Source: Verrucomicrobiota bacterium
Lineage (GTDB): Bacteria > Verrucomicrobiota > Verrucomicrobiia > Limisphaerales > UBA11358
Direction of reading: 5' to 3'
Assembly: GCA_049509875.1 (NCBI GenBank)
Contig: JBEKZM010000017.1
Span: 2,529 to 66,528, forward strand
Length of the DNA stretch: 64,000 bases
The first letter of the stretch is position 1. The number at the start of each line of letters is the position of its first letter. Positions 746-53,326 of the stretch are shown piece by piece. Both the position numbers and the translations under genes were made by a program. The notes under the pieces are model-generated. The model had not been told where the DNA came from. It saw only the letters and a program-made list of their open reading frames with translations, and did no database searches.

Positions 746-3043
746 ATGCGCATAATTTCTTCCTCCCTGCTCGCTCTCTTCGCGTCGTCGCCAATGCTTA
801 CGACGATGCGTGGTGAGGAAGCCGCCGCACCGTTGCTCGGCTTCACCGAAACATCTTCAGCCAACCAGGTTGCGCTCGAAAAAAAGTTCGACGCTCTGCT
901 CAAGGCTGATGATCAGAAAGCGTGGCTGGAACAGATGGCCGCCGCGCCGAATCACGTCGGCTCGCCGCATGACCACGCGAACGCGGAGTTCATGCTGGGA
1001 CAGTTCAAGGAATGGGGCTGGGACGCGCGTATCGAGACGTTCGACGTGCTCTATCCAACGCCGAAAAAAGTCAGCGTGGAACTCATCGCGCCGACACATT
1101 TCAACGCCAAACTGCAAGAGCCAGCGGTGAAGGGCGACCGGACGTCGGATCAAATTGTCGACGAGTTGCCACCCTATAACGTCTACGGAGCGGACGGTGA
1201 TGTCACGGCGGAACTCATCTACGTGAACCAAGGCATGCCGGATGATTACAAAGAACTCGCCGCGCACGGCATCGATGTGAAAGAACACGTTGTGATTGCG
1301 CGTTACGGCGGCGGCTGGCGCGGGCTCAAGCCGCGCTTCGCGCAGGAACATGGAGCGGTGGGCTGCATCATTTATTCCGATCCGCAGGACGATGGCTATG
1401 GTGCTGGTGACCCGTATCCGAAGGGCGGATTTCGACCGGCAGACGGCGTGCAGCGCGGCTCTGTGCTGGACATGACGATGTATCCGGGCGATCCCCTGAC
1501 GCCGGGCGTGGGCGCCACTGCGGATGCGAAGCGTCTGGAGATTAAGGACGCGAAGACGATTTTGAAAATTCCCGTGCTACCGATGTCGTATGCAGATGCG
1601 CAGCCTTTGCTCGCGGCGTTGGCAGGGCCGGTGGTGCCTGCGAACTGGCGCGGCGCGTTGCCGATTACATATCACTTCGGCCCCGGCCCAGCCAAGGTGC
1701 ATCTTACGGTCGAGTCGGATTGGAGCCGGAAAACACTTTACGACGTCATCGCGGTGATGAAAGGCAGTGAATTGCCAGACGAATGGGTGTTGCGCGGCAA
1801 TCATCACGACGGCTGGGTCTTTGGGGCAGAAGATCCGCTCTCGGCCAACGTGGCGCTGATGGCCGAGGCGAAAGCGCTCGGCTCGCTGGCGCACGACGGC
1901 TGGTGGCCGCGCCGCACGCTGGTTTATTGCAGTTGGGACGGCGAGGAACCGGGCTTGTTGGGTTCCACCGAATGGGCCGAAACCCATCAAGAGGAATTGC
2001 AAAAGAAAGCCGTGCTGTATCTGAACACCGACGGCAACGGGCGCGGCTTTTTTGACGCCGAGGGCAGCCAGTCGCTCCAAAAATTTGTGAGCGAGGTTGC
2101 GCATTACGTGCGTGACCCGGAGACGGGCGCGACGGTTTATCAACGTCTGCGCGCGAAACTAATGGTGGATGAAAGCAAGACCAACGGCGACGACGACGCC
2201 AAGCGCGCCGCCGAACGGGTAGCTGAGGGCGGAGCCATTCCGATGGGCGCGCTTGGTTCGGGCTCGGATTACACGGCATTTATTGATCACCTCGGCATCG
2301 CGTCGCTGAATATGGGCTTTGGCGGCGAGAGTGAGACGGCTGGGGTTTATCATTCGGCGTATGATTCCTTCGATCACTACTCGCGCTTTGGCGATCCGGG
2401 TTTTGTCTATGGCGTTGCGCTGGCGCAAGTTGCGGGCCGCATTGTGACGCGCGTGGCTGATGCGGACGTTTTGCCGCATGCCACGGTAGATTTTGCGGAA
2501 GCCGTGGAGCGTTACACCGACGAACTGCACAAGAAAACCGACACGATGCGCGACAGAACCGAGTGGCAACATCGCGTGCTCAACGAAAAACTGGATGCGC
2601 TTGCCGCGGATCCAACGAAGACGAATCGTCCGCCGGAGAGCGAAGCCTCGGTGCCCGTGCTGAACTTTGCGCCGCTGGACAACGCCGTGCTGCGCCTGAA
2701 GAAATCTTCCAAAGCTGCCGATGAAGCGTTTGCGGCAGCCATGAAAGCTGGATTGCCGCTGGATACACAGCAACGCGCGCAGTTGAACGGTCTGTTCCGA
2801 TCACTCGAGCAGACGCTGCTCTCCGCGGATGGCCTTCCCGAACGCAGCTGGTTCCGCCACATGATCTACGCGCCCGGCCGCAAGACCGGTTACGGAGCGA
2901 AAACGTTGCCGGGAATCCGCGAAGCCATCGAAGATCGCCGGTGGTCGGACGCCGAGAAATATGCAAGTGTGGTCGCAGGTGGGTTAAACAAGTACAGCGA
3001 CCAGTTGGATAAAATTATTGCGCTTTTGCCGTCGCATCCGTAA
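746..3043 (+). CDS. Secreted M28-family zinc peptidase with PA domain and transferrin-receptor-like dimerisation domain (glutamate carboxypeptidase II/NAALADase-like)
   Basis: The 771-aa ORF runs 728..3043 from a TTG. An in-frame ATG at 746 gives a signal-like N-terminus, MRIISSSLLALFASSP. M28 metal-ligand blocks are present: RGNHHDGWVFGAEDP, WDGEEPGLLGSTEW, GSGSDYTAFIDHLGIAS, VYHSAYDSF. The C-terminal domain is helical. Confidence 0.85.
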   Translation: MRIISSSLLALFASSPMLTTMRGEEAAAPLLGFTETSSANQVALEKKFDALLKADDQKAWLEQMAAAPNHVGSPHDHANAEFMLGQFKEWGWDARIETFDVLYPTPKKVSVELIAPTHFNAKLQEPAVKGDRTSDQIVDELPPYNVYGADGDVTAELIYVNQGMPDDYKELAAHGIDVKEHVVIARYGGGWRGLKPRFAQEHGAVGCIIYSDPQDDGYGAGDPYPKGGFRPADGVQRGSVLDMTMYPGDPLTPGVGATADAKRLEIKDAKTILKIPVLPMSYADAQPLLAALAGPVVPANWRGALPITYHFGPGPAKVHLTVESDWSRKTLYDVIAVMKGSELPDEWVLRGNHHDGWVFGAEDPLSANVALMAEAKALGSLAHDGWWPRRTLVYCSWDGEEPGLLGSTEWAETHQEELQKKAVLYLNTDGNGRGFFDAEGSQSLQKFVSEVAHYVRDPETGATVYQRLRAKLMVDESKTNGDDDAKRAAERVAEGGAIPMGALGSGSDYTAFIDHLGIASLNMGFGGESETAGVYHSAYDSFDHYSRFGDPGFVYGVALAQVAGRIVTRVADADVLPHATVDFAEAVERYTDELHKKTDTMRDRTEWQHRVLNEKLDALAADPTKTNRPPESEASVPVLNFAPLDNAVLRLKKSSKAADEAFAAAMKAGLPLDTQQRAQLNGLFRSLEQTLLSADGLPERSWFRHMIYAPGRKTGYGAKTLPGIREAIEDRRWSDAEKYASVVAGGLNKYSDQLDKIIALLPSHP

Positions 3044-3286
3044 CGCGAACGGATTTCTTCCTGCAATTATTCGATGACGCTCTGCTGATTGCGACTCATC
3101 CAGCCAGTGACCCCTGTTCCAGCATCGCGGTGATCGTTTCGAGCGCATTCCCCTCCAGTCGATTATGCCGCGTCAGGGATTATGCCGCGTGGATCGGGTG
3201 GAGGCGCAATTTTCGCTCTATTCCTCCGTTAACCGGGTATCAACGCGCGGCATAATCAAAGACTCTCCAGAAAGGCCCGTACGTTA

Positions 3287-3763
3287 TCACTTGGATGATA
3301 CCGCTTGGGTATCCGCAATGTACGCTCCGAGAATGGCACTGCGCATCGCTGGACCGCTGCCCGCGGAATTTACGGCACTTTTGCCCGGTGGAAAACCAAT
3401 CCACAGTTTAAGACACGCTTTGGCGGTCGCCAGTCCCACGCCACCTGGCAGGCCAATGAACCAAAAACGAAATTTCCAAGCCAGGGTGCGTTGAAATGCC
3501 GTGGCATCCTTAGGTTGGGCGAGCAGGGCCTGGGCAACCATCAAGGTGTGCTCGGTATCATCGCTAACCATGCCGCGGCCGAATAAGAGACGCATTCGCC
3601 ACTGACCCCGCCATCGGCGGCGAATTTTGTCGGCGGAGAGATTTTCGGCGGGTAAACCGAGCGCATCACCAACGGCTGTCCCGAGCAACAGCCCAGTGAA
3701 GTGGTCCATTCGATTGAGAGTTGGGCCAGTCGCACTCACGTTATGCGGAATTTTGCGGCCCAT
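3287..3763 (-). pseudogene. ADP-ribosylglycohydrolase (ARH) family gene, 3'-truncated (158 codons of an expected ~300)
   Basis: The N-terminal ARH signature is present (LLGTAVGDALGLPAE, MVSDDTEHT). The frame stops at 3287 after ILGAYIADTQ. No GGDTDT block follows in any frame. GATTATGCCGCG repeats lie directly downstream. Confidence 0.6.
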
Positions 3764-4725
3764 GTTGTTCGCACAAATCTGCGAACTCTTGAAACAGGCG
3801 ATCTACATCAGCCTTACGAGCAAGTTGGCTGATCCAATCGGGTGGAATGGATTTTATGCCCTATGCAACCCCGGCCAAACCGCCGGCCACACAACCCGTG
3901 GTGTCGGTGTCGCCGCCAAGATTGACTGCTGAGTCCGCAGTCGCGAAAATTCTGCGTCGTCAACAGGCACCACGGGCTCGCCGTCAAAGTGTTAAGCACA
4001 TACCCGCCGGAATCAATTTCGGATTCGGGCCGCCGGGCCAAATCACGGGCCAGGAGGAGTTGAAAATAGTCCCGCCCGGCGGACCACCATGGATCGGGTT
4101 CATAGAATTCGCGGAAGGCTGACAAGCCAATGCTATATGCGTTTTCTGCATTATCGCCTTTTAACAATTCACGGACGATCAACGTAAACAAGCCGCAAGC
4201 CATTTGGGATCGAGGATGCCGATGCGTCAGAGCGGACGCTCGGTGAACTCGATCCATGGCCTGCTTGATGGGGCAATCTGCGAAGCGCAACGAAACTGGC
4301 AGGATGCGCATTAACGAGCCGTTGCCGTTGCTGAATTGATCATCGCCACCGGCCACTTCCGCCCGCATCCCGTTGGCAATGCGGGTAAGCGCACGTGCCG
4401 TGGCCACTCCCACATCAAACGTTTTCCCGTGTGGTGTCCAGATTTCTTCCTGATACCAGCGGACGAATCGTTTTCCCATGTCCCCGGTGTCAAATTCGTG
4501 GCGGAGTAGACTTTCGGTGGAACACAACAGCAATGACGAATCGTCCGACCAGGTGCCTGCTGGTTGCTTGTGTGTACCGAGTCCACGCATTTCAGTGACC
4601 GGATCGGATTGGACCTCTGCACGATCCATGAATTCCACGGGCACGCCGAGGGCATCGCCCACGAGCGATCCCCACAGGCCGCCGAGGATACGATCTTTCC
4701 GTGAAATGTTTGTCTCCGGCTTCAT
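3741..4725 (-). pseudogene. ADP-ribosylglycohydrolase (ARH) family gene with one frameshift and one in-frame TAG
   Basis: The ORF 3814..4725 starts LGGLWGSLVGDALGVPVEF and runs to GGYVLNTLTASPWCLLTTQNFRDC. The conserved continuation AVNLGGDTDTTGCVAGGLAGVA*GIKSIPPDWISQLARKADVDRLFQEF is in another frame, with the shift near 3925-3945. That continuation is interrupted by TAG at 3861-3863 and ends at TAA 3741-3743. Confidence 0.65.
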
Positions 4726-31791: not shown

Positions 31792-32220
31792 TCAGGGCGC
31801 GCCCTTCCCCGGCCAGAAATCCATGGTAATCGTGGTGCCTGCTCCCGGCGCCGATTCGATGTGAAAGTGATCCACCAAACTGCGCGAGCCAGGCAACCCT
31901 GATCCCAGCGTGCCAGCTTTGGCGTACTCCAAAAGCCGTTCCGGGTGCTCGATGCCCTTGCCCTTGTCCGACACGATGATACGTAGTCCGTGCTTGTCGC
32001 CCTCGGCAACCTGGCCAATTCGGATTTCTCCGGCACAGCCGGCGTGTTGAACCACATTGCGCGTGATTTCAGAAATCACCGTGGCGAGCCGCGTCAAAAT
32101 CGCAGGAGGAAAACCCATTTTAGTGGCCTCGTCCCGGCCCACGAATCGCGCCAAAAGCACGTCTTGCACCTTGGCAATTGGCAGGCGGGCCAGTTCAACC
32201 CAGATAATGTTTTCGTTCAT
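31792..32220 (-). CDS. RsbW/SpoIIAB-like anti-sigma-factor-type serine kinase (HATPase_c_2)
   Basis: N-box EITRNVVQHA, G1 SDKGKGI and G2 GSGLPGS are present in 142 aa. ATG 32220 is preceded by GGAG. The gene lies 13 nt after the upstream gene. Confidence 0.7.
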   Translation of the reverse strand: MNENIIWVELARLPIAKVQDVLLARFVGRDEATKMGFPPAILTRLATVISEITRNVVQHAGCAGEIRIGQVAEGDKHGLRIIVSDKGKGIEHPERLLEYAKAGTLGSGLPGSRSLVDHFHIESAPGAGTTITMDFWPGKGAP

Positions 32221-32233
32221 TGGTGGTGGCTCC

Positions 32234-33316
32234 TTAGGTTTCAAGCGGCACCAGCACGCTGACGGTTGTCGCATCAGCGCCCGATTCGATGGCGAATTCG
32301 CACCCATGCAGGCGGGCGGCGCCTTGGGCCAGCGCCAGCCCCAGCCCAAGTCCCTGCGGTTTTCTGCTGCCGCACCAGAACTGCTTGAAGGCGCCGATCC
32401 GCGAAATCTGGTCGGCGTTCATGCCCGCTCCGCGGTTGCCAATCGTCAAGGACCAGAATTCACGCTCCCCGCGGCCCTTGACCTCAATGGGCGTTCCCGG
32501 AGCGGAAAACTTGCAGGCGTTGTCCACCAGCTCTTCCACGAGCCAGACCAGGTATTCCTCACTGAAAGACAAATCAATTGGCTCACACGTGAGGGCGAGA
32601 TCTCTCTCCCGTTTCCAATTTCGGCAGACTTCCCGCGCTACACGATCGACCACGGTTCCGGCTGCGACGAGCTGTCCAGTTCTCACCAATTCAAAGCGAT
32701 TGGCGTAGAGCTGCGGCAGTTGGGCATAAAGATGGAGCCGCCGCATCATGCGCCGCAAACGCGCCGATTCCTGGACCACGGACTTATGCATCGCGGCGAC
32801 CTGGGTGTCCTGCCCGGCATATTTGAGCGCCAGCAAATTCGTGACGGTCGTGATCCGATCGAGCGTCTCCAAAACCTCCGACGGCACCGAGCCGGCCACC
32901 GCCAGGCTGACCTCTTCGGCGCGGAGACGATTTTCCTCAAGCTGGCGGTTCCGTTTCTCCAGGCGGCGGCGCACTGAGCCGATGAGCGCCTCTGGCTGGC
33001 AGGGTTTGGTGATGTAATCATCGGCGCCTGCCTCCATCCCGTGGCGCAGGTCGTCGTTGGCCACCAGCGCCGTGAGGAAGATAAATGGTATCATCGCCGT
33101 CCGCGGATTGTCCCGTACGGCTTGGAGGACCCCGAAACCATCCAAAAGCGGCATCATGATGTCGCAAAGGATGAGATCTGGAATCGAGTTAATCGCCGTC
33201 GCTGCTCCCAGCCTGCCGTTTTCGGCTTCGAGCGTCTCGAAACCTTCAAAACGGAAGATCTGGGCCATCTGCTTGCGAATGGCATCATCGTCTTCAATGA
33301 TCAATATTCTGTGCAT
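32234..33316 (-). CDS. Response-regulator receiver fused to a histidine-kinase-like DHp/HATPase module lacking the phospho-acceptor His
   Basis: REC domain: MHRILIIEDDD...LILCDIMMP...DYITKP. HATPase: LVDNACKFS...IGNRGAGM...GLGLGLALA. At the H-box position the sequence is PSEVLETL, where the paralogues have SHEFRTPL. Confidence 0.75.
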   Translation of the reverse strand: MHRILIIEDDDAIRKQMAQIFRFEGFETLEAENGRLGAATAINSIPDLILCDIMMPLLDGFGVLQAVRDNPRTAMIPFIFLTALVANDDLRHGMEAGADDYITKPCQPEALIGSVRRRLEKRNRQLEENRLRAEEVSLAVAGSVPSEVLETLDRITTVTNLLALKYAGQDTQVAAMHKSVVQESARLRRMMRRLHLYAQLPQLYANRFELVRTGQLVAAGTVVDRVAREVCRNWKRERDLALTCEPIDLSFSEEYLVWLVEELVDNACKFSAPGTPIEVKGRGEREFWSLTIGNRGAGMNADQISRIGAFKQFWCGSRKPQGLGLGLALAQGAARLHGCEFAIESGADATTVSVLVPLET

Positions 33317-39025: not shown

Positions 39026-41098
39026 TTAAAACAACTCCACATTGTCGCCCAAGTCTCCGCTGGCTGCTGGTTTCGTTTGTGCCACCGGAAGCGTCGGCGT
39101 CGGCGGGCTGATTTTCGTCGCCATCAATTCAGCCGGGCGCGGGGGATCTTCCGGCCGCTCACTTGGAGGAGGGACTTCGCCGGAGGGGTCGGCAATGCGG
39201 GGCGCGGGTGACGCGGAAAAATCGTCGAACAGCTCGATTGAAGACTCGGAAGCGTGCGAGCTTGCCGGCGCCAGCGCCGGTTGTAAAGCGGTCGCGTGCG
39301 CTTGCCGCTCCGACTCCATGGTGTATTTGGATTTGAGACTGTCAATCCTCTGGGAGGCCGCAGTCTCGTCCAACGATGCCGGACCGGCCGCGCCGCCCCA
39401 AGCCACTAAATCCTGAAAGAAGCCGCTGGACCGAAGTCTGGCTTGGGCGACGGTTACGGGAAATTGGATATCCGCCATGACCTTCTCGACGGATGCGGCA
39501 AAGGTCTCTTGTCGCTGAGTGACCCCCCGGATCTGAACGGGGATGGCACTTTCCAGGTCCGCGAGCTTTTTCATGGAGAGCGCCGATTCCTCGGAAAGGA
39601 CTGCCTGTTCCGCCTGTCCGAGTATCTGAAAGTCTTCCAGCCGCTGCCGGAGATTGTTCACCATCTCCGAGGCGTGGCTGAGCACCCCCCCCATTCGTGC
39701 CACGTGCTCGATGACATCTTCCGAAATGAAGTTCACGCGCCCTGCCAGCACTTCCAAGGTGGCTCCGGCGGGTGTACGGATGGCGAAGACCTGGGCGTTC
39801 AACCCGGCTAGCCGAACGTCGCCAGCCAAGGCGGTCGCTTTGGCGGTGCAGTCAACAAAGCTGGCTTGCAGGGGCTCGAAAGCCGAGACAATGCCGGCAA
39901 TTTTCTGCACCGCCTGCTTCACAATACTCAGAATCTCATCGACGCCAGCCTGGCACTGCCGGTTGACTTTGGCGTCCAGCGTGGCGCCGCACACCTTGAC
40001 CGCCAATTCGGCGGCGGCACCGACCTCGGTGCGCAGGCTCTGGATGCCTGACTTAAGACTATCGGCGGCTTGGTTGAGCTGGTCGAACATACTTTGGACC
40101 TGCTGCAATTGAATCTGGCCGGCCTGGAACACGAACTGGCGCGCCTGCGCATCAGTGGCCGGCGTGGCGGCCCGGCCAGCGCCCAGATGCGCGCGCATCT
40201 CATCCATCGCTCCGCCGACGTGCTCGATTCTTTGACGGGTGATGTCCTGGCATTGCAGGGCCATGACGATGCCATTGATGTGGCCCGTGACCGCCTGGTT
40301 TCGCTGGGACAAGTCGGTGGCCCCGGCCCCGGAGCGGATGAGCGCCTGGCTCAGTGCACCCAACTGGGCGCGAGTCGCCGCCAAAGTGATCGTCACTTTC
40401 TTTCGATGCTCTTGAATCGAGCCGGAAATTTGCCGCATCAGGCTGTGGGCGATTCGCTCGCTCGCCGCGAGTTCATCAAATTGCCTTTCCATCGTGCTGC
40501 GGACATCATGCACCGTCCGGTTCACATGGTCGGAAAGAGTGAAGAAAGCCTGCTGCACTTCCACCGGATGGCGGCTAGCTTCGATGCGGAATGACATCGT
40601 GATGAAGCTTAGCGGCAGGAGAACGCGCATGAGTTCATCGCGCTGCTGGGAAGCCTGGGCGAGCCGTTGCTGCAGCTCGTTAAACATGGCGAACACGTGA
40701 TCGTATTGATCATAGCTGGCCAGCACCAGGTCCTCCGCTTTTTTGAGCAATTGGAAGGCGAATTGGACGGCGGCGTCCTGGGTCTGGCCCAAGGTCAGGT
40801 CGGTGAGTGACTGGCATTCCTTTTGGTTTTCGCCCAACTGTCGTGCCAGGTCTTCCAGGCCATTGCCGGTGGCCAGGAATTCCGTCTCCATGCCACGCGC
40901 CAGAGATGAGAGAGAATCCTTTTCTTCCTGGAGCCGGGAGGCCCAGACGCCCGCTTCCATTCGCCCGGAGGATCTGGCGACAGTCGCACGATACCACGCC
41001 CGGGCTCCCAGGCCATGGCCGCGCGTCAGTAAAGCCCTGCCCGCCTGCTGCAAGCGGCGAGCTTGCTCGCGGATCTTTATGTCGGTTGGCCAACGCAT
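39026..41098 (-). CDS. Cytoplasmic coiled-coil protein with two degenerate MCP-tip-like segments and a Pro-rich tail (atypical chemoreceptor-like protein)
   Basis: ATG 41098 lies 14 nt after the cheB stop. The segments LSFITMSFRIEASRHPVEVQQAFFTLSDHVNRTV and LAGLNAQVFAIRTPAGATLEVLAGRVNFISEDV echo [34 protein letters not shown] of the neighbouring MCP. There is a QCQDITRQRIEHV motif. The tail contains SIELFDDF and ends DNVELF. Confidence 0.55.
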   Translation of the reverse strand: MRWPTDIKIREQARRLQQAGRALLTRGHGLGARAWYRATVARSSGRMEAGVWASRLQEEKDSLSSLARGMETEFLATGNGLEDLARQLGENQKECQSLTDLTLGQTQDAAVQFAFQLLKKAEDLVLASYDQYDHVFAMFNELQQRLAQASQQRDELMRVLLPLSFITMSFRIEASRHPVEVQQAFFTLSDHVNRTVHDVRSTMERQFDELAASERIAHSLMRQISGSIQEHRKKVTITLAATRAQLGALSQALIRSGAGATDLSQRNQAVTGHINGIVMALQCQDITRQRIEHVGGAMDEMRAHLGAGRAATPATDAQARQFVFQAGQIQLQQVQSMFDQLNQAADSLKSGIQSLRTEVGAAAELAVKVCGATLDAKVNRQCQAGVDEILSIVKQAVQKIAGIVSAFEPLQASFVDCTAKATALAGDVRLAGLNAQVFAIRTPAGATLEVLAGRVNFISEDVIEHVARMGGVLSHASEMVNNLRQRLEDFQILGQAEQAVLSEESALSMKKLADLESAIPVQIRGVTQRQETFAASVEKVMADIQFPVTVAQARLRSSGFFQDLVAWGGAAGPASLDETAASQRIDSLKSKYTMESERQAHATALQPALAPASSHASESSIELFDDFSASPAPRIADPSGEVPPPSERPEDPPRPAELMATKISPPTPTLPVAQTKPAASGDLGDNVELF

Positions 41099-41112: not shown

Positions 41113-42195
41113 TTAATTTGTCCGCCCTGCCGCGCGCACCACTTCGCGCGCGAGTTGTCCGAGCGGGTAAATTTGATTCACACCGCCCCGCTTGATGGCC
41201 TCCGCGGGCATGCCGAAGACGACACAACTTGCTTCGTCCTGCGCGAAGGTGATCGCGCCCGCCTCCTTCATTTCCAACATTCCGCGTGCGCCATCGTCGC
41301 CCATGCCGGTCATGATGACACCAATGGCATTTTTGCCGGCGTAGCGCGCGGTAGAGCGGAAAAGCACGTCCACGGACGGCCGATGGCGGCTGACGAGCGG
41401 CCCGTCTTTGACCTCGACATAATAGCGCGCGCCGCTGCGTTTGAGCAGCAAGTGCCGGTTCCCCGGGGCGATGAGGGCCTGACCGCGGAGCACCGAATCG
41501 CCGTCGGCAGCTTCTTTAACGGTCACCGCGCACAGGCCGTCGAGGCGCTGCGCGAAACTGGCGGTGAATTTTTCGGGCATGTGCTGGACAATGATGATTC
41601 CCGGCGCGTCCGGCGGCATGGCCTCGAGAAAAATTCGCAGCGCCTCGGTTCCGCCCGTGGACGCTCCCACCGCGACAATTCGTTCGGTGGTCTGGATCAT
41701 CGCCATTGAAGCCGGTTTGGCCAGCATGGCGTCGGCCGTGAGTTTTGGTGCCACGACCACTTGGGGGGCGGGCTTGGGACCAGGGTGGCCGAGGCGCGCC
41801 TGCGCGGCGGATTTTACGGCATCACAAATTCGTATGCAGGATTCTTCAAGAAACTGCTTGGTGCCGAGTTTGGGTTTGGTGATGATTTCGACGGCGCCTT
41901 TTTCCAACGCGGCCAGTGCGGTTTCTGAACCCTTTTCAGTCAGGGTGGAGCAGATGACCACCGGGATGGGGCATTGGGCCATCAGCTTTTCCAGAAACGT
42001 GATGCCGTCCATGCGCGGCATCTCCACATCCAGGGTGATCACGTCGGGCACCTGCTGTTTGATGCGTTCGACGGCAATGTAAGGATCCGCCGCCGTGGCC
42101 AAGACCTCGATCTGGGGATCGCTTTCCAGAATCTCTTTCATGGTCTGGCGCACCACGGCGCTGTCGTCCACCACCAGCACTCGGATTTTTTTCAT
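41113..42195 (-). CDS. cheB: Protein-glutamate methylesterase/glutaminase (REC plus CheB catalytic domain)
   Basis: [46 protein letters not shown]. Confidence 0.9.
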
Positions 42196-42707
42196 ATTTT
42201 GGTCGCTCCCCGGGACAGCCATCTGTGCAGCACCTCGCCCGTTTGCGTATTGAACATGATTTTGCAGCCGCGGTTGCCGCCCACGCTCTGGGCCTTGATG
42301 CGAAACCGAGCCGCCTTGAGAAGGCGTCGCGCCATGGCGATATTGGCATGACCGATCGAGCGATCGCTATGGGAATCGCCGCCCAGGTCAACGACATTGC
42401 CGCCGCCGAACAATTTCACCTCCACCTCACTGGGCGGCAATCCGAGCCGGAAAAAACGCCCGGCCATCGCGGGGAGGGCGTCGCTCAGATAGCGGAAACG
42501 ACGGGCCGGCTCCGGGCCGGGCGGAATTTCCCCGTGCGGTTCCGGCAGCAGGGCGTGGCAGATGGCCGCCAGACGAAAGCGGGCATTGAACATCGTTACG
42601 GACACACAGGATCCGAGCAGGGTCAGAACCCATTGCGGTTCCTGCGTGACCAGCAACTCGCCGGGCTGCAATTGAACCTGCGGTATCGGAGGACCCGGTG
42701 GTTTCAT
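42192..42707 (-). CDS. cheD: Chemoreceptor glutamine deamidase
   Basis: [21 protein letters not shown] and [17 protein letters not shown]. There are ATGA overlaps at both ends. Confidence 0.85.
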
Positions 42708-43652: not shown

Positions 43653-44066
43653 TCATTGTTCAGTCGTCCGGCTTTCGTCGCCATTCCAGATATTTGCCCC
43701 ATAATTCTTGTCCAACGCCGCTTCGACCGCTGCAACCAACGACGTGCTTGAGAACGGTTTTCCCAATGAGATATCCGCGCCCAAACCGCGTGCCTCAGCG
43801 AACCTGTTCGATGGCGATTGGTAGGAGCTGATGGCGATGAACGGCACGTTAAGCTTCATCGCCCGCACCTTCCTCATGATCTCCAGCCCGTCCGGAGGTG
43901 GCATATGGATATCCGTGATCACCAGGTCCACGCGTTCCTTGCGTAGCATTTCCAGCGCTTCGGCTCCCGACGACATGGACCACACCTCGTGGGATTCTCG
44001 CCGGAGAACTGATTTCACGAAGGTGAGAACCGATTCCGAGTCGTCTATGACCAGGATTTTCGCCAT
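43653..44066 (-). CDS. Single-domain response regulator (CheY-like) with short C-terminal extension
   Basis: MAKILVIDDSESV...DLVITDIHMPPPDGLEI...LGKPF. Confidence 0.85.
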   Translation of the reverse strand: MAKILVIDDSESVLTFVKSVLRRESHEVWSMSSGAEALEMLRKERVDLVITDIHMPPPDGLEIMRKVRAMKLNVPFIAISSYQSPSNRFAEARGLGADISLGKPFSSTSLVAAVEAALDKNYGANIWNGDESRTTEQ

Positions 44067-44100
44067 GAGATGGCTTGCGTCTTGCGATTGGATCGGGCCT

Positions 44101-44610
44101 TTAAGCCGGAACTGCCGCGGCTTCGGCGGCAATCTCCGCGGTTTTCAGGAGCGCCGGGCCGGCCGAGGCAAAGACCCGGTTGATGTCGAGGATGATGATG
44201 AACTCATCACCTCGCCGGCCCATGCCCTGTATCAAGTCCGTGCGCCAGCGCATGGCGATGCGCGGGGGCGGATTGATCTGGCCGGCTTCCAGTTCGATGA
44301 CTTCATGCACGCTGTCGGCGATGCCGCCCAGGACCGTGGTCTCGCCATCGAGCTCCAGCTCCAACACGACGATGCGGCTGTTGATCGTGTCGGGCGTGGA
44401 AGGCAGGCCGAACTTAAGGCGCAGGTCCACCACGGGAATGGCTTTGCCGCGGACGTTGACCACGCCGCGCATGTAGTCGGGCGCGGTCGGCACCTTGGTG
44501 ATTTGGGGGAGCTCCAGCACTTCGCGCACCTGCGTGACGTTGATGGCGAACAGTTCGTCACCCAACTTGAAGGTGATATACTGTGCAGTTTCGTTAAAGG
44601 TCGTGCTCAT
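44101..44610 (-). CDS. cheW: Chemotaxis coupling protein CheW
   Basis: YITFKLGDELFAINVTQVREVLE...VNVRGKAIPVVDLRLKFG...IIILDINRVF. Confidence 0.9.
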   Translation of the reverse strand: MSTTFNETAQYITFKLGDELFAINVTQVREVLELPQITKVPTAPDYMRGVVNVRGKAIPVVDLRLKFGLPSTPDTINSRIVVLELELDGETTVLGGIADSVHEVIELEAGQINPPPRIAMRWRTDLIQGMGRRGDEFIIILDINRVFASAGPALLKTAEIAAEAAAVPA

Positions 44611-44630: not shown

Positions 44631-46730
44631 TTAGTAACTGGTGAACTCCTTGTCTTGAGCGTCGCCGTGGCCATTGCCATTACTTTTCCGGGGTTCGGCT
44701 CCCAAGTTGATGGCAACGGTGGCCGGTTTGGCGGCCCGGGGCTTCTCCATGTGCGATGGAGCGATCACCAATGGCTTCTTTCCATTCGCAGCGGGCTTCA
44801 TTGAAGGAGCGGCCTTGATGGAGGCACTGCTGCGTTTGGACGAGGCGTCGTCCATTTTAAAGAAACTGATGGATTGCTGGAGCTGTTCGGCCTGACTGGA
44901 CAACTCTTCGGAGGTGGAAGCCATTTCCTCCGAAGCGGAGGCGTTCTGCTGGATGACTTGGTCGAGTTGTTGAATGGCCTTGTTGACCTGGGAGGCGCCG
45001 GTGTTCTGTTCGGCGCTGGCGGCATTGATTTCCTGGACCAATTCGGCCGTCTTGCGGATGTCCGGCACCAGTTTGGTGAGCATTTCGCCCGCACCTTGGG
45101 CGACCCGGACGCCATCGGTGGCGAGTTTGGTGATTTCCGCGGCCGCACCCTGGCTGCGTTCGGCCAGCTTGCGCACTTCGCTGGCGACCACCGCAAAGCC
45201 TTTGCCGTGTTCGCCGGCCCGGGCGGCCTCGACGGCCGCATTGAGCGCGAGCAAGTCGGTCTTGCGGGCGATTTCTTCGATAATGTTGATCTTTTCCGCG
45301 ATTTCCTTCATTGCGGTCACCGTCTGTCCAACAGCCTCCCCGCTGGCCTTGGCATCTTCGGCGGCTTGGGAGGCCAGCTTGTCAGTCTGTTTGGCGTTGT
45401 CGGCATTTTGCTGGATGCTCGAAGTCATTTCCTCCATTGAAGAAGTCGTCTCCTCGGCGGAGGCCGCCTGCTCGGACGCGCCTTGAGAGAGTTGTTGGGC
45501 CGTGGCGCTCATCTCCTCGCTGCCTTGAGCGACGTTATTGGCGGCGCTGACGGTTTCACTGACGACGGTGCGTAACTTTTCGACCATTCCATTGAGCGCT
45601 TCCAAGGTCAGCCCGATTTCGTCCCGATTCTTGATTTCTGCCGTGCGGGTCAGATCGCCCCCGGCGACCGCCCCGGCCAATTGCGATGCCTGGTTCAAAG
45701 ATTTGATGATGTAGCTTAGCAGCCAAGTCGTGGTTCCCACGCCCACCAGGATGGCGGCGATCAGAATTCCGATCAGAAGATTCCGCGCCATGGCATATTC
45801 TTTGACTGCGGATTCCTTGGCCGCTGCCATTTCTTTATTATTCTTGTCAATGATGAATTCCAATGCCGCTTCGGAGGCGTCGGCGAGCTTGCGGCCGTTG
45901 CCGGTTGAAAGCTTCATGGCTTCCGAATTGCCATTTTCCATGGCGAGCCGGCTCACTTGGTCGTGAATATCGAGAAACTTGTTCCAAGCGGAGCGGAAAA
46001 GGGCCAGTTTGGCCTGTTCATCCGCGTTGGCGGCTTTGTCCAGTTCGGCCAAACGGGCGGTTATTTGCGTCTTGAGTTCCTCAATCTGCTTGGCTTGGGC
46101 CTCCATCGCCGTCTTGTCGGTTTCGATGATTAAGTTTTTTTCCGCCCGGTGGATGGCCAGCAAATTTTGTCCCGCGTGGGAGGCACTCAAAGCGGCTTGC
46201 ATCAGCTCAGGGGTCTCCTTCGCGCGCTTGGCAAACTGCGCTTCGAGGTCCGACAGAATGGCTTCAGCCGCATCCAGCGCGTTGCGACCCTCGGTTTTGG
46301 AAAGCGCCTGCGCCCGCACATTCGAATTGAGCAAGGCAAGCTCACTCACTTTTTTGTGATTTTCCTTGAACTGCTGCCATTGGTCCGCAAATTCCTTTAC
46401 TTTGGCTTTGCCTTCGCCAGTAGCCAATGCGTCGAGCTTTTGCCGGCTTTCCTCCAAGGCCGCCATATAAATGTCAATGTTCGCGGCTTGTTGATTCTTA
46501 CCCTCGACGGTGTCATCCAAAATCATGTTCTTCTCCCCCCGGCAGACTTTCAAGAATTGCTGGTCAATCTCTCCGGCCAACTCAACCTTGGCGGCATTGT
46601 TATCGACAATGGTATTGAGCTGTTCGTTAATGGTGCTGAGTTTCTTGATCCCCAGCACCGCCGAGACCGTCAGCATGCCCAGCACGACGGTGAAACCGAG
46701 AATGAGTTTTGTTTTTATTGTTAATTTCAT
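44631..46730 (-). CDS. Methyl-accepting chemotaxis protein with large helical (HBM/double 4HB-like) periplasmic domain, HAMP and MCP signalling domain
   Basis: TM1 (LILGFTVVLGMLTVSAVLGI), a ~300-aa Lys/Ala/Glu-rich helical ectodomain and TM2 are present. The tip is [35 protein letters not shown]. The C-terminus is ...KEFTSY. Confidence 0.9.
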   Translation of the reverse strand: MKLTIKTKLILGFTVVLGMLTVSAVLGIKKLSTINEQLNTIVDNNAAKVELAGEIDQQFLKVCRGEKNMILDDTVEGKNQQAANIDIYMAALEESRQKLDALATGEGKAKVKEFADQWQQFKENHKKVSELALLNSNVRAQALSKTEGRNALDAAEAILSDLEAQFAKRAKETPELMQAALSASHAGQNLLAIHRAEKNLIIETDKTAMEAQAKQIEELKTQITARLAELDKAANADEQAKLALFRSAWNKFLDIHDQVSRLAMENGNSEAMKLSTGNGRKLADASEAALEFIIDKNNKEMAAAKESAVKEYAMARNLLIGILIAAILVGVGTTTWLLSYIIKSLNQASQLAGAVAGGDLTRTAEIKNRDEIGLTLEALNGMVEKLRTVVSETVSAANNVAQGSEEMSATAQQLSQGASEQAASAEETTSSMEEMTSSIQQNADNAKQTDKLASQAAEDAKASGEAVGQTVTAMKEIAEKINIIEEIARKTDLLALNAAVEAARAGEHGKGFAVVASEVRKLAERSQGAAAEITKLATDGVRVAQGAGEMLTKLVPDIRKTAELVQEINAASAEQNTGASQVNKAIQQLDQVIQQNASASEEMASTSEELSSQAEQLQQSISFFKMDDASSKRSSASIKAAPSMKPAANGKKPLVIAPSHMEKPRAAKPATVAINLGAEPRKSNGNGHGDAQDKEFTSY

Positions 46731-46738
46731 GTTTTCTA

Positions 46739-48850
46739 TCAGTTGTGAGCGACCGGATTTGAGGACGCAGCGGTTAATTTGTTGTGTGTTTTAGTAGAAC
46801 GATCCGAATCCCAGACCGACATGGTCGTGTCCGCACGGTTCGGCTGCTCGCCCGCCATGCGAACGAGCCCAGCCAAATCGAGGATGAGCGCGACCCGACC
46901 GTCGCCCATGATGGTGGCGCCGGAAACGAGGTCGATGTGGTGATAAAATTTGCCGAGCGGCTGGATGACGGTTTGGTGGCTTCCCACCACGCGGTCCACA
47001 ACCAAGCCGACGCGATCCTCGCCATGGCGTGCGATCACGATCTTTTCGATCTCCGGTTCCGCGCCAGCGATGGCGAAGGTTTCGCGCAGGAGCACGTAAG
47101 GCACGAGCTCGCCGCGCACGGCAATGACGTTGCGGCCATTGTTACGACCACGGTCGGACCGCTGGAGTTCCACATTTTCGGTCACCACCGACATCGGAAC
47201 GATGAACTGGTCGCGGCCAATTTCGACGAGCAGTCCGTCAATGATGGCGAGCGTCAGCGGCAGCGTCAGCGTGATCGTGGTGCCCTGGCCCGCCTTGCTG
47301 GAGAGGGCGACCCGGCCGCGCAGGGCCTCGAACTGCCGCTTGACGACGTCCATGCCGACACCCCGACCGGAAACATTCGTGATTTTTTCGGCCGTGGAAA
47401 AGCCGGGCCGGAAAATAAGCTCATACATTTCCGGCTCGGAAAGCCTGGCGTCGGCAGCGATCAATCCTTTTTCAACCGCCTTGGCGCGGACGGCCTCCGC
47501 ATCAATTCCCCGTCCATCATCGGTGATGGTAATGACGACGTTCGAGCCGACGTGAGCCGCGGCGAGGCGGATGGTGCCGCGGCGCGACTTGGCGGCCGCG
47601 GTGCGCGTTTCGGGCACTTCGATGCCGTGATCGATGCTGTTGCGGATGAGATGAACCAGCGGATCACCGAGTTGGTCGAGCACGGTCTTGTCGAGTTCCG
47701 TGTCCTCTCCCTCAGTGACCAGGTCGATTTCCTTGCCCAATTCGGCGGACAGGTCATGCACCAGCCGCTTGAACCGGTTGAAGGTGGCGCCGATGGGCAT
47801 CATCCGGATGCCCAGAACGTTGTCACGCAACTCGTCTACCAGGCGCTCCAAATCCTCCACCGGCGCGGCGAGGTCCGGCAGCTTGGCAGCGGCGGCCACC
47901 TGCGAGAGGCGCGATTGGTTCATCACCAGTTCGCCGACGAGATTCACGAGGCGGTCGAGCCGTTCGGAGGGAACACGAACACTGGAATCTCTCGAAGAAA
48001 GCCTATGCGACGGCGCGGCTGCCGCTGGCTGGGTGACCGGCTTCTCCGGCGCGGCGGCGGAAACGGGCGGCGGAGTGGAAGTGGCGGGGTTAGCCCTAGC
48101 TGGGGTGGAAACCCCGGCGGCTGCAATTTTGATCTCGCTACCGTCTTCCACGAACATGAACACGTCCTTGATCGAGTTGAGTCCCCGGCTCGTGGCGAGG
48201 GTGATATCCCACGCAAAATAACACTGGTCGGGCTGAAGCTGCTCCAGCGGCGGCACGGCGCCGGCATCGGCCGTGATCCGGCAATTGCCGAGCTCGCGCA
48301 GCTCGTTTAGCAACGCGATGGGATTCGTGCCCGCCACCATCAGGCCGGGCGAAGGGCGAAAATGAATTTCATAGGTTTGAGCGGGCGCAGGGTTGGCGGG
48401 CTCGGACGGCCTCGAAGCTTTAGTTTGGTGCACCGGAGAGCCGTTCTGTTCCGCCGCGTGGGTGGATGGCAGGCACCCGTTCAAAGCCGTCACAATATCC
48501 GCGCCGGCGGCGACCGGGGCAGGTTGATTGCTTTGCGCAGCGTCTAATAATGCCTTGATATGGTCCTTCGACCGGAGTATGAGACCGATGAGTTCTTTCG
48601 AGAGGGGAACGCGGCCTTCGCGGACTAGATCCAAAACTGACTCCACATGGTGCGTGAACTCCGCAACCGTGTCGAAACCAAACATGCCACCTGAACCCTT
48701 GAGCGTGTGAAACGCGCGAAACAGAGGATTGATGAGATCGTTCGCCGCCCCGCCGGCATCAAGCTCCAAGGAAATCTCCTCGATGCGGAGCAACAGCTCT
48801 TCTGCTTCGGTGAGGAAGACTTGGACTGGATCGGGCTGGCTTGAGTTCAT
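46739..48850 (-). CDS. cheA: Chemotaxis histidine kinase CheA
   Basis: Hpt domain FRAFHTLKGSGGMFGF. Kinase core DPLVHLIRNSIDHGIE, DDGRGID, GRGVGMDVVK. A C-terminal CheW-like domain is present. Confidence 0.9.
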   Translation of the reverse strand: MNSSQPDPVQVFLTEAEELLLRIEEISLELDAGGAANDLINPLFRAFHTLKGSGGMFGFDTVAEFTHHVESVLDLVREGRVPLSKELIGLILRSKDHIKALLDAAQSNQPAPVAAGADIVTALNGCLPSTHAAEQNGSPVHQTKASRPSEPANPAPAQTYEIHFRPSPGLMVAGTNPIALLNELRELGNCRITADAGAVPPLEQLQPDQCYFAWDITLATSRGLNSIKDVFMFVEDGSEIKIAAAGVSTPARANPATSTPPPVSAAAPEKPVTQPAAAAPSHRLSSRDSSVRVPSERLDRLVNLVGELVMNQSRLSQVAAAAKLPDLAAPVEDLERLVDELRDNVLGIRMMPIGATFNRFKRLVHDLSAELGKEIDLVTEGEDTELDKTVLDQLGDPLVHLIRNSIDHGIEVPETRTAAAKSRRGTIRLAAAHVGSNVVITITDDGRGIDAEAVRAKAVEKGLIAADARLSEPEMYELIFRPGFSTAEKITNVSGRGVGMDVVKRQFEALRGRVALSSKAGQGTTITLTLPLTLAIIDGLLVEIGRDQFIVPMSVVTENVELQRSDRGRNNGRNVIAVRGELVPYVLLRETFAIAGAEPEIEKIVIARHGEDRVGLVVDRVVGSHQTVIQPLGKFYHHIDLVSGATIMGDGRVALILDLAGLVRMAGEQPNRADTTMSVWDSDRSTKTHNKLTAASSNPVAHN

Positions 48851-48858
48851 GGGCAGGA

Positions 48859-49224
48859 TTAAGGCAGTAATTTCTTGGCTACCATCACGAGTTGTTCAAT
48901 GCGGAACGGCTTGACGATCCAGCCGCTTGCGCCCGCCGCCCGTCCGGCTTGTTTTTTGGCGTCCTGCGATTCGGTCGTGAGCATGACGATGGGAATGTAT
49001 TTGCATTGCGGCAGCGCGCGAACCTGGCGAATCAATTCGATTCCGTCCATGTTTGGCATGTTCAGGTCGGTAATGAGCATGTGCGGAGCACTGCTGGAGA
49101 TCTTGGCGAGTGCGTCCTGCCCGTCCACCGCCTCAACGACGTCATAGCCGGCGTTGCGAAGCGTGAAGCTGACCAATTGGCGAATGCTGGCCGAATCATC
49201 GGCCGTCAGAATGGTTTGGCTCAT
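48859..49224 (-). CDS. cheY: Single-domain response regulator CheY
   Basis: MSQTILTADDSASIR...MLITDLNMPNMDGIELI...GASGWIVKPF. 121 aa. It lies 8 nt upstream of cheA. Confidence 0.85.
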   Translation of the reverse strand: MSQTILTADDSASIRQLVSFTLRNAGYDVVEAVDGQDALAKISSSAPHMLITDLNMPNMDGIELIRQVRALPQCKYIPIVMLTTESQDAKKQAGRAAGASGWIVKPFRIEQLVMVAKKLLP

Positions 49225-49228
49225 GGGC

Positions 49229-49537
49229 TTAAGCGGGCAATGGCTGCAAGGCTTGAGGCGGCAAACCAAGGAGTTCAGCGCATTGATCAATTGCCGGAGC
49301 AGGCGCGTGAATGGAAAAAGCTTTGCCAGCGGCAAGCGCGCTGCGACGAGCTGCCACGAGCAATTGAATGCCCGCTGCGTCGCAGGTTTCAACACGACTG
49401 CAATCTAATTCGAGGCCATGTTCACCCGCGAGATGCTCGGTTAATGCGTGGCGCACCGCGTCGCCATTATAAATGTCCAAATCACCGGCAAACCGAACGG
49501 TGTTCGTTTCTCGCTGCAATATAATTTCGAGTTTCAT
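49229..49537 (-). CDS. STAS-domain protein (anti-sigma-factor-antagonist fold), first gene of the chemosensory operon
   Basis: MKLEIILQRETNTVRFAGDLDIYNGDAVRHAL...LELDCSRVETCDAAGIQLLVAARR. At the position of the DS[ST]G phospho-serine motif the sequence is DAAG. Confidence 0.7.
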   Translation of the reverse strand: MKLEIILQRETNTVRFAGDLDIYNGDAVRHALTEHLAGEHGLELDCSRVETCDAAGIQLLVAARRSALAAGKAFSIHAPAPAIDQCAELLGLPPQALQPLPA

Positions 49538-49590
49538 TTGGATCAGACGGAAATTCGGGCTTGCTCTATTCACCATTCATAAATTCGCGA

Positions 49591-51676: not shown

Positions 51677-53326
51677 TTAGAATTGGATTTGATTGGTGGC
51701 CGCCGGCTTGTGCCCGCGGGGAGCGTGGGGAGCAACGAACGGCACCTGGTGGCGTGGAGCGCCATGACTCGATGTCCTCGGCGGGTTTTTTCGTCCATCG
51801 GCGGTTGGCCGGGCAGCAGCGCCTTGGTGGTGGCCGCCGACCAGTTCGACGAGATCGGCCACCAGGCGTTTCATGGTTTCGGCCTGCGCGTTGAGTTCCT
51901 GGGCCGAGGCTGCGGTTTCCTGGGCATTGGCCGCATTGGATTGCGTGACTTTGTCCATCTGTCCCACCGCCAAATTCATCTGGCTGATGCCGCCGGCCTG
52001 TTCACTGGAAGCGGCGGCAATTTCCGCAGCCAGTTCGTCCATGCGCCGCGCTTTGTCCACGATTTCGTTCAATGCCTGGGCCACTTTGCCCGTCAGGGCC
52101 ACCCCCTGGCCGGCCTTGCTGATGGCCCCTTCAATTTGGGCCGCGGTTTCCTTGGCCGACTGGGCCGAACGCTGCGCCAAATTGCGGACTTCATCGGCCA
52201 CGACGGCGAAGCCCATGCCGGCTTCACCTGCGCGGGCCGCCTCCACGGCGGCGTTCAAGGCCAGGATGTTCGTCTGGAAGGCAATCTCATCAATCGTGTG
52301 AATGATTTTGGCGATGTCGTTGGAGGAGGTTTTGATCGAGTCCATTGCCCGCAACAGGCCCTGCATGTCTTGCACACCCTGGTCGGCGGCGGCCCGCGTC
52401 TGCCGGGCCAGATCCTTGGCCGTATTGACGTTCTCCGCATTGCGCTTGGTGGTGCTGGAGGCTTCTTCCAGCGAGGCGCTGGTTTCCTCGATAGCCGCCG
52501 CCTGTTCGCTCGATCCCGCCGCCAGCGACTGGCTCGTGACGCTCAATTGCCCGGAGGCGGCGGCCACCTGTCCGGCGCTATCGCGCAAGCCCTGCACCAC
52601 GTCACGCATCACCCGGGTGATGGATCGGGTAAGCAGCCCGCCTGCCGCCAGGCTAAAGCCGAGGATGAGGAGACACAGGGCGGCTATATATGCGTAATAT
52701 TGCCGGGTTTGACCGTTTAACTTCTGCGCCAGGGCGTCCCGTTCACTCTTGATGTCATCAATGTAAACGCCGGCGCCAACGAAGAAATCCGTGCCGGGAA
52801 TGAAGGCTGCATAGCTCAACTTGGGCTGGACTCCCTGGCCGGCCTTTTCGAACCGATACTGCACAAAGCCGCCGCCGGCTTGCGCCGCCTCCACAAAGGC
52901 GCGGATGAATGGAATGCCGTCGCTGTCCTTCAGGTCAATGAGGTTCTGGCCATTTTGGCTTTTGTTGATCGGCACGTTGATGCGCACGCCGGTGGTGTCA
53001 TACGAGAAAAAATATCCCGAATGGTCAGGAAAGAATCGCAGCGGGTCCGTCTCCGCCTCGATGATGGCAATTTGCTCCGCCCGCGTTTTGGCTGACTTGA
53101 TCCGCTGGCTGAGCACTTGAATCTCAGTGTCCACGAGCGATTTCAAGGTGTCCTTGTGCGCGTTTAGAAGTTGGTTCTCAAAATTGGGAAAAACCACCTG
53201 CTTTTCCGTGCGCCGTTCCAGCCAGCCACAGGCCAGCAAAACCGCCACAATGCCGGCCAGGAAAACGGCCTGCAACAGCCACAACCGCTGCCGCAGCGTG
53301 AAATTGGTCGCCGGTGAAATGCTCAT
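51677..53326 (-). CDS. Methyl-accepting chemotaxis protein with single Cache (sCache_2-like) sensor domain
   Basis: The Cache-like ectodomain is [20 protein letters not shown]...[11 protein letters not shown]...[11 protein letters not shown]. The tip is [35 protein letters not shown]. The C-terminus is ...TNQIQF. Confidence 0.85.

Follow-up and report, generated by a model that had tools for sequence, protein, structure and literature searches.

The proteins closest to the subject of this paper belong to bacterial chemotaxis (Che) pathways. In E. coli, the CheY~P phosphatase CheZ is placed near the kinase by binding CheA-short, and its C-terminal helix binds the alpha4-beta5-alpha5 face of CheY. 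Outside the Proteobacteria, the removal of CheY~P is ascribed to CheC, CheX or FliY, or to phosphate sinks. We know of no description of CheZ in Verrucomicrobiota, Acidobacteriota, Desulfobacterota, Nitrospirota or the other phyla that bear the protein analyzed here. CheZ is treated as a proteobacterial invention, and its active site carries the signature AxxF(Y)Q-DxxxQ (PMC7750401). CheT of S. meliloti, as summarized in one report, is a small CheZ-like CheY phosphatase with a DxxxQ motif whose che operon also encodes the STAS protein CheS (PMC12654446); according to the same summary it acts on one of two CheYs and is reported to bind CheR (Agbekudzi et al. 2024, via PMC12654446). DosM (V. cholerae VC1403) is described in two further reports as the established double-signaling-domain scaffold of F9 arrays (PMC7534058, PMC9321776). 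Here we analyze X, a 690-residue protein encoded in a 64,000-nucleotide stretch of DNA (the window: positions 2,529 to 66,528 of contig JBEKZM010000017.1, assembly GCA_049509875.1) from a Verrucomicrobiota bacterium. Judged by its sequence, X combines two hairpins derived from methyl-accepting chemotaxis proteins (MCPs) with a CheZ-type motif and tail peptide. Each part has precedents (the MCP hairpin, the CheZ motif, the double-domain DosM), and their combination in one protein appears to be undescribed: in the literature searched, we found no published account of the X family, and no description of an MCP-CheZ hybrid or of a CheZ-type site outside the Proteobacteria. The reading that we prefer, with slightly better than even confidence, is that X is a soluble, array-docked phosphatase that acts on CheY~P in the manner of CheZ and has the shape of a receptor.

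The CheZ-like helix and the C-terminal tail

The original prediction, made from the sequence alone, merely listed the motif QCQDITRQRIEHV (residues 282-294) as an incidental feature. It is instead the most conserved element of the family and a specific match to the CheZ catalytic helix. Residues A280-L-Q-C-Q284-D285-I-T-R-Q289 of X line up with A138-Q-D-F-Q142-D143-L-T-G-Q147 of E. coli CheZ, D285 and Q289 aligning with D143 and Q147. The catalytic Asp and Gln, four residues apart within AxxF(Y)Q-DxxxQ, are thus both present in X (A280, C283, Q284, D285, Q289). The consensus of the motif in 74 X sequences, drawn from genome loci across many phyla, is [VI]xx[LM]Q[FYC][HQ]D[IM]TRQ[QK].EHV, with Phe or Tyr at the Cys position in most other phyla (MQFHDITRQ, LQYQDITRQ). 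Only seven columns are invariant in a 64-sequence alignment that reaches down to 18-20% identity (Q282, D285, Q289, N434, L448, L689, F690), and these fall in three elements, namely the QxxDxxxQ helix, the second tip and the C-terminal LF. In the verrucomicrobial subfamily, degeneration affects the tips and not the motif. The polar residues Q284 and T287 would occupy core heptad positions flanking the site, as Q142 and T145 do in CheZ, with D285 and Q289 predicted on the solvent-exposed b and f positions.

Profile comparisons point to the same region. When the family is compared by hhalign with 47 CheZ sequences, residues 261-311 of X are placed on CheZ residues 119-169 over 51 columns (P 3.4e-4, probability 38%). 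Broader profiles on both sides raised this match (P from 3.4e-3 to 1.5e-3 and then 3.4e-4), and only this region was found; on the CheZ side, a search seeded with E. coli CheZ listed relatives of at least 71% identity (most above 79%), and a metagenome scan widened the set to 55%. The Pfam CheZ model has a single match in the organism's own genome, and it is this motif (residues ~242-304, 11.9 bits, E 0.55). With A4, a profile built on 59 positions of the motif window, the best match in the whole E. coli K-12 chromosome falls at cheZ residues ~129-163 (E 0.21), and the two matches are reciprocal best genome hits. In 81 genomes of the order Rhizobiales, A4 finds long X homologues (E 1e-12 to 5e-9) together with proteins of ~185-250 amino acids (open frames of 213-287 amino acids, per-genome E 1e-6 to 2.5e-4); the three of these that were scanned are all Pfam CheZ proteins, at 33-55 bits and above the cut-off. 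With the HMMER filters off, A4 gives 19-26 bits to alphaproteobacterial CheZ (5/5) and a median of 10.9 bits to gamma- and betaproteobacterial CheZ (46/47), the range over true CheZ proteins being 7.5-26 bits, as against at most 2.8 bits for 16 MCPs and 2.7 bits for 68 reversed sequences. We also considered whether the motif is the conserved MCP element 'MDxVTQQNA', with which it has a loose hhalign pairing. This was rejected as the better match because A4 scores MCPs no better than reversed sequences, and it is further disfavored by the distance from tip to Asp, 106-109 residues in X and in a 420-residue relative vs 90 in Tsr. In X the motif, on a helix of ~50 residues, lies 109 residues after tip 1. 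By these profiles, the motif region is specifically CheZ-like and not the MCP element.

The second point of likeness is the end of the chain. X closes with a variable, flexible linker and an acidic-hydrophobic peptide ending in Phe, which is the layout of CheZ, and it is from this likeness that its partner is predicted. ELF occurs twice in this tail, as had been noted beforehand: once internally (IELF, residues 621-624) and once as the last residues of the chain (VELF, 687-690). Family C-termini read [VI][ED][LMF]F or LLF in 136 of the 138 members, usually as LGDNVELF, and 47 of the 138 contain an internal copy of the peptide. Alphaproteobacterial X proteins end in ..IDDLLF or ..IDSLLF and other X proteins in ..DNVELF or ..DNIDLF, while Pfam-confirmed alphaproteobacterial CheZs and two close relatives end in ..DIDALFD, ..DIDAMFD, ..VDALFD or ..IDDLLEAV. 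The Trp that defines xWxxF pentapeptide tethers is absent in all 138 family members, although the Phe is present (N-V-E-L-F). The original prediction had offered this peptide as a possible NWETF-type tether for CheR and CheB lacking its Trp; the lack of Trp holds throughout the family, and the tether role loses ground, since the tail resembles, in sequence, the CheY-binding C-terminus of alphaproteobacterial CheZ more than an xWxxF tether. Directly before the disordered tail stands a further conserved helix (residues 588-601, T593 and E597 invariant in the close family), found in looser form in the shorter relatives described below.

X shares with CheZ (PF04344, with remote forms such as A. 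caulinodans CheZ and H. pylori CheZ-HP) the A-x-x-[F/Y]-Q-D-x-x-x-Q pattern within some 50 alignable residues, the tail layout, a bundle predicted to be all-helical and a gene beside cheY. It differs in being three times longer, in its two MCP-type hairpins, and in its presence in Verrucomicrobiota, Acidobacteriota, Desulfobacterota, Nitrospirota and other phyla.

The family is large and without a name. X itself has no significant match in Pfam, NCBIfam, PDB sequences (phmmer) or a PDB profile search, which return coiled-coil noise only, and the family has no Pfam or NCBIfam model of its own. A word-indexed search returned 140 close relatives that are unnamed, 'hypothetical protein' or evidently spuriously labeled by automatic annotation; the few that carry organism labels are verrucomicrobial. 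When 1.84 billion representatives were scanned in full with HMMER, the family profile matched 3,246 clusters (50% identity) at E <= 1e-3, of which 517 reached E <= 1e-30; among the best 150 listed, most align over their full length. On genome contigs, X is found in Verrucomicrobiota, Acidobacteriota (Bryobacteraceae, Solibacteraceae), Nitrospirota, Methylomirabilota, Calditrichia, Zixiibacteriota, Armatimonadota, Kryptoniota, Rhodospirillales and Rhizobiales, and in Desulfobacterota including Syntrophorhabdus aromaticivorans UI, Desulfomicrobium and Geobacter. Verrucomicrobiota themselves carry it only sporadically, with a full-length copy in seven of the 201 genomes sampled.

Its genomic company is conserved. 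In 57 of the 74 loci a CheY is encoded on the same strand no more than 1 kb from X, and in 56 a CheA no more than 3 kb away, across at least 10 phyla; the usual order is X-(STAS)-CheY-CheA-..., and in acidobacterial members the start of X overlaps the stop of cheA. Co-occurrence with Che genes in other genomes, proposed at the outset as a check, is found, in most loci as a position beside cheY and cheA. CheR or CheB is found in 51 of the 74 loci, the most constant neighbor being CheY. Canonical phosphatases are scarce near X: only 3 of 79 loci have a CheX-like open reading frame, and the che cluster of the window has none.

Shorter relatives indicate which parts matter. One form of 420 amino acids has a single, canonical MCP tip (MCPsignal 62.9 bits) with the motif 106 residues past it, and others of ~197 and 117 amino acids have no hairpin at all; all three keep the motif as Q[FM]QDxxxQ and end in ..VELF, ..IELF or ..VEFF. 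The 420- and ~197-residue forms sit after cheB at the end of che operons, and the 117-residue form is encoded on the opposite strand, flanked by cheW and cheD. Since the motif and tail persist in relatives with one hairpin or none, the hairpins look like an accessory module rather than the functional core; on sequence, the constant core looks like the CheZ-like helix plus tail, with the MCP hairpins as an add-on. The 117-197-residue relatives may correspond to CheT-like proteins. Compared by its published description, CheT resembles X in its DxxxQ motif, its predicted CheZ-like fold and its place with CheS at the end of a che operon, and differs in being small, in having no MCP hairpins and in its reported binding of CheR (PMC12654446).

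The receptor-like hairpins and the predicted fold

Two MCP-like tips in one chain had been proposed for X, and both are found, with different firmness. Family profiles spanning the tips (LSFITMSF...NRTV, residues 163-196, and LAGLNAQVF...SEDV, residues 430-462) were run against the E. coli K-12 chromosome. The tip 2 profile (residues 395-490), searched in six frames, matches the tips of tsr, trg, tap, tar and aer (E 6e-11 to 7e-10), and its sole other match at E <= 10 is at chance level (E 0.65). The profile-profile comparison suggested at the outset, carried out with hhalign, relates residues 370-545 to 16 MCPs with 96.9% probability (P 1.4e-10, compared with 2e-3 for a reversed control). X has no match to Pfam MCPsignal (PF00015, cut-off 34.6 bits); remote family members do match that model at hairpin 2, P0383 above the cut-off (41.3 bits), P0280 and P0299 under it. 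The tip 1 profile (residues 125-225) is far weaker, yet its only five E. coli matches are the same MCP tips (E 0.026-0.22), and hhalign places FRIEASRHP..F..L in register on the MCP tip (P 0.03 vs 0.2 for a reversed control). By these profile matches, the likeness of the tips to MCPs exceeds chance, tip 2 being a true MCP signaling tip and tip 1 a strongly degenerate copy of one. An internal duplication that would have produced one hairpin from the other was considered, but the hhalign match (P 3.6e-5 vs 5e-4 reversed) is too weak to claim it.

Like canonical MCPs (PF00015; E. coli Tsr, the MCP of the cluster), X has the tip core L-N-A-x-[VI]-x-A, a returning L/F-x-V-[VL]-A and a long antiparallel helical hairpin. 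Unlike them, it has no transmembrane or sensor part, no recognizable methylation sites and no Pfam match, and its CheZ-like window does not match 'MDxVTQQNA'. Inspection of two family alignments (A1 and A3) revealed no conserved [EQ][EQ] methylation-site pattern in X. Each hairpin arm measures ~65 residues (about 9 heptads), which is the signaling subdomain alone. The predicted lack of a transmembrane segment is confirmed, the maximum Kyte-Doolittle mean over 19 residues being 1.36. Thus the picture of a soluble, MCP-derived protein with two hairpins (a double signaling domain) within a Che cluster stands, and for such a protein docking to CheA/CheW through a receptor-like tip can reasonably be inferred.

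DosM offers a close parallel for this architecture. Both proteins are soluble, have two tandem MCP signaling hairpins and no sensor domain, and belong to che clusters. In DosM both domains are full MCPsignal domains, whereas those of X are short (about 9 heptads per arm), degenerate and without a Pfam match; X has the QxxDxxxQ motif and the ..ELF end that DosM-type proteins lack; and in the model the tips of X are separated by two additional helix turns. DosM-type proteins are paired with a triple CheW, and the cluster of X encodes a single-domain CheW of 169 amino acids. An identity of X with DosM was rejected: a DosM-type protein and an X homologue coexist as separate proteins in one F9-like cluster of an acidobacterium (Solibacteraceae), the former having two full MCPsignal domains (114.7 and 94.9 bits) and neither the motif nor the ..ELF end.

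The AlphaFold2 model of X, built on a 41-sequence alignment, is all-helical with a mean predicted local distance difference test (pLDDT) score of 75.7. Its long helices span residues 49-102, 110-174, 179-310 (kinked at 282), 313-371, 376-440 and 446-542, followed by shorter helices up to residue 605 and a disordered tail (606-690). The hairpins turn at residues 175-178 and 441-445. The three-dimensional topology is deduced from helix lengths in this model alone, and with these lengths the intramolecular pseudo-dimer that had been proposed for the two tips would fit. A Foldseek search of the PDB returns generic long helical bundles, with MCPs among the top matches only at E 2e-3 to 4e-2, and this outcome decides nothing about the identity of X.

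Proposed mechanism and competing explanations

As a phosphatase, X would work as follows. One or both hairpin tips would dock it onto the CheA/CheW baseplate or onto the receptor trimers of the cluster's array, setting the phosphatase beside the kinase as E. coli CheZ is set there through CheA-short. The tethered C-terminal peptide would capture CheY~P at its alpha4-beta5-alpha5 face, in the way of the CheZ C-terminal helix. D285 and Q289 would then be inserted into the CheY active site, the Gln amide positioning the attacking water. The probable substrates are one or both CheY-like receivers of the operon, and kinase and phosphatase would thereby be co-localized. What the analysis observes of this is the homology of the hairpins to MCP tips, the likeness of the motif to the CheZ site, the conserved tail and the adjacency to cheY and cheA. 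CheT, encoded with a STAS protein in its che operon, provides a precedent for a CheZ-like CheY phosphatase with a DxxxQ motif (PMC12654446).

Several points weigh against a phosphatase. The hhalign probability for X and CheZ is only 38%, and the likeness spans ~50 residues, a length at which convergence on a short helical motif is possible. X scores below the gathering threshold of Pfam CheZ (11.9 vs 30.7 bits), and hmmscan lists nothing. In the verrucomicrobial subfamily, Cys replaces the aromatic residue of AxxF/YQ. The best 50 of the 926 Foldseek matches in the PDB do not include CheZ. The motif helix of the model runs toward the hairpin turn, whereas the CheZ catalytic helix runs away from it, so the predicted bundle topology of X is not that of CheZ. 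The terminal N-V-E-L-F shares three of its five positions (N, E, F) with the NWETF tether, and the partner of the tail could be CheR or CheB rather than CheY. The organism's own genome has CheX/CheC elsewhere, so that a phosphatase is not strictly missing, and we infer the catalytic role from sequence throughout.

The hairpins could also be the whole point of the protein. X would then be a non-catalytic structural receptor of the DosM type, with hairpins at opposite ends of a rod that staple or nucleate a cytoplasmic double-layered array, and with the QxxDxxxQ helix and tail serving as assembly contacts only, for example with CheA, CheW or CheS. Two MCP-type hairpins in one chain speak for this, as do the AlphaFold helix lengths, which would put one turn at each end of the molecule, the precedent of DosM itself as cited above, and the F9-like character, with triple CheW, of some X-bearing clusters. 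Yet those F9-like clusters hold a separate DosM-type protein beside X, and in the cluster of the window the MCP is transmembrane and the CheW single-domain. In relatives that have a single hairpin or lack both, the motif and tail persist, which likewise disfavors the pure decoy or scaffold first imagined for X, and it is the tips that degenerate in the verrucomicrobial subfamily, not the motif. We therefore consider a purely structural role unlikely. A related identification, with IcpA/MCP514, the soluble receptor that opens alphaproteobacterial che operons, was rejected because MCP514, the A. fabrum receptor at that operon position, is a protoglobin-HAMP-36H MCP (PMC8466855).

The tail has invited another explanation, in which N-V-E-L-F is a divergent NWETF-type tether and X recruits the adaptation enzymes CheR and CheB, with or without any action on CheY. 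N, E and F fit positions 1, 3 and 5 of NWETF, the peptide stands at the end of a long flexible linker, X follows cheR-cheD-cheB in the window, CheR or CheB is encoded in 51 of the 74 loci, and the DxxxQ protein CheT is reported in complex with CheR and with a dual role (PMC12654446). We give this account little credence: the defining Trp is missing from all 138 members, the ends of alphaproteobacterial X (IDDLLF, IDSLLF) and of CheZ (DIDALFD) point to a CheY-binding type, no conserved methylation-site pattern was seen in the alignments inspected, and the most constant neighbor is CheY, not CheR or CheB. That X might be a duplicated receptor in decay, left as a pseudo-receptor that does nothing specific, is suggested by its degenerate tips and its lack of any Pfam match. 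Such decay is very improbable: the family comprises over 3,200 clusters at 50% identity (517 at E <= 1e-30), aligns over its full length, keeps its motif residues invariant across phyla and its synteny, and includes members translationally coupled to cheA.

Returning to X as a CheZ-type phosphatase, a bolder and rather doubtful extension is that the family forms an evolutionary bridge between chemoreceptors and CheZ, the CheZ-type site having arisen on the C-terminal arm of an MCP signaling hairpin. Two-hairpin forms would still plug into arrays as built-in phosphatases, and stepwise loss of hairpins (the 420-residue form, then those of 117-197 residues) would lead to the free-standing CheZ/CheT-type phosphatases of Proteobacteria. 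If this were true, CheZ-type termination would be widespread outside the Proteobacteria, and the co-localization of kinase and phosphatase would be hard-wired through receptor mimicry. If X proteins are phosphatases at all, a missing signal-termination component is identified for widespread (STAS)-CheY-CheA Che pathways, receptor mimicry becomes a new way to place a phosphatase at the kinase, and the origin of CheZ becomes a testable question. Annotators would also gain a simple signature, Q-[FYC]-[QH]-D-x-T-x-Q...E-H-V combined with [VI][ED]LF at the C-terminus.

The locus and its features

The coordinates are collected in Table 1. As had been stated, X lies directly after cheB, its ATG at 41098 following the cheB stop by 14 nucleotides; the start is backed by homologues that align from residue 1. 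The strings quoted in the original prediction (both tip stretches, QCQDITRQRIEHV, IELF and VELF) are all found in X, and the MCP of the cluster does contain the canonical tip quoted from it.

Table 1. Positions of X, its parts and neighboring or related genes, in window coordinates unless one of our locus (L), genome (G) and contig (C) handles is given.
Feature	Position	Strand	Basis or remark
X (690 amino acids), whole coding sequence	39026..41098	minus	stop codon at 39026-39028; full-length homologues
CheZ-like catalytic helix window, residues 261-311	40166..40318	minus	hhalign, A4 profile, genome scans
Core motif A280-L-Q282-C-Q284-D285-I-T-R-Q289-R-I-E-H293	40220..40261	minus	Q282, D285, Q289 invariant family-wide
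Helical hairpin 1, residues 110-243	40370..40771	minus	AlphaFold2 helices 110-174 and 179-310; profile 125-225; hhalign
Degenerate MCP tip motif 1, LSFITMSFRIEASRHPVEVQQAFFTLSDHVNRTV, residues 163-196	40511..40612	minus	
Helical hairpin 2, residues 376-542, by profile a degenerate but genuine MCP signaling domain	39473..39973	minus	
Degenerate MCP tip motif 2, LAGLNAQVFAIRTPAGATLEVLAGRVNFISEDV, residues 430-462	39713..39811	minus	N434, L448 invariant
Conserved helix L-K-S-x-Y-T-M-x-S-E-R-x-x-H, residues 588-601	39296..39337	minus	alignments
Variable, Pro-rich, disordered linker, residues 606-683	39050..39283	minus	pLDDT 30-40; variable in alignment A1
Internal IELF peptide, residues 621-624	39227..39238	minus	second copy of terminal motif
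C-terminal peptide G-D-N-V-E-L-F, residues 684-690	39029..39049	minus	L689, F690 invariant
cheB, same operon, directly upstream of X	41113..42222	minus	
CheY-like receiver, candidate substrate	43653..44132	minus	
MCP of the cluster, transmembrane, 4HB-HAMP	44631..46730	minus	canonical tip
cheA	46739..48850	minus	
CheY-like receiver adjoining cheA, candidate substrate	48859..49395	minus	
STAS protein, CheS-like, first gene of the operon	49229..49576	minus	
DosM-type receptor, 666 amino acids, Solibacteraceae metagenome-assembled genome (MAG)	L199 1752-3752 (G001:C22)	minus	same cluster as L037
Short relative, Rhizobiales-order genome	L206/L213 (G071:C9, ~7195-7836 of L213)		
Short relative, Rhizobiales-order genome	L203/L212 (G077:C7)		
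Short relative, Rhizobiales-order genome	L214 7860-8264 (G009:C1)	minus	

From 5' to 3', the minus-strand operon encodes STAS, CheY, CheA, the 4HB-HAMP MCP, CheW, CheY, CheR, CheD, CheB and X, followed by an ABM protein, a B12-binding protein, a PAS kinase, a REC-PAS kinase and a REC-HATPase protein. The receiver that precedes cheA here occupies the position that adjoins X in most other genomes. Taken together, these genes resemble a Che pathway of alternative function to which a photocobilin/B12 sensor, PAS kinases and an RsbW/STAS partner-switching module are linked. The organism's 7.2-Mb genome encodes 11 MCPs in total, and CheX/CheC are found only on other contigs, in further che loci (C1, C103, C242). 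A second canonical MCP (MCPsignal 159.8 bits) is encoded upstream of the operon on the same strand, at ~51944-52414 (minus; G000:C79:54472-54942).

Downstream of X, a REC-HATPase protein of ~360 amino acids and an RsbW-like kinase recur (window positions 31792-33316; loci L028-L039) in verrucomicrobial and acidobacterial clusters, some of which also have a STAS gene (e.g., L030, L025). This recurrence suggests a Che pathway whose output goes to a partner-switching module. In the Solibacteraceae cluster, the DosM-type gene lies directly upstream of a gene for a multi-CheW (triple CheW) protein of ~600 amino acids, and the X homologue comes after cheA; the tips of this DosM-type receptor are LLALNAAIEAARAGEHGKGF and a second one of 20 residues. 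The X homologue of one complete verrucomicrobial genome (G259:C1:674869-676578) contains an in-frame TGA, which could reflect a pseudogene, a sequencing error or recoding. Finally, a Methylomirabilota MAG (L042, positions 1-4200) has two tandem X-family open reading frames, starting at 1 and 2070, upstream of CheY-CheA-CheW.

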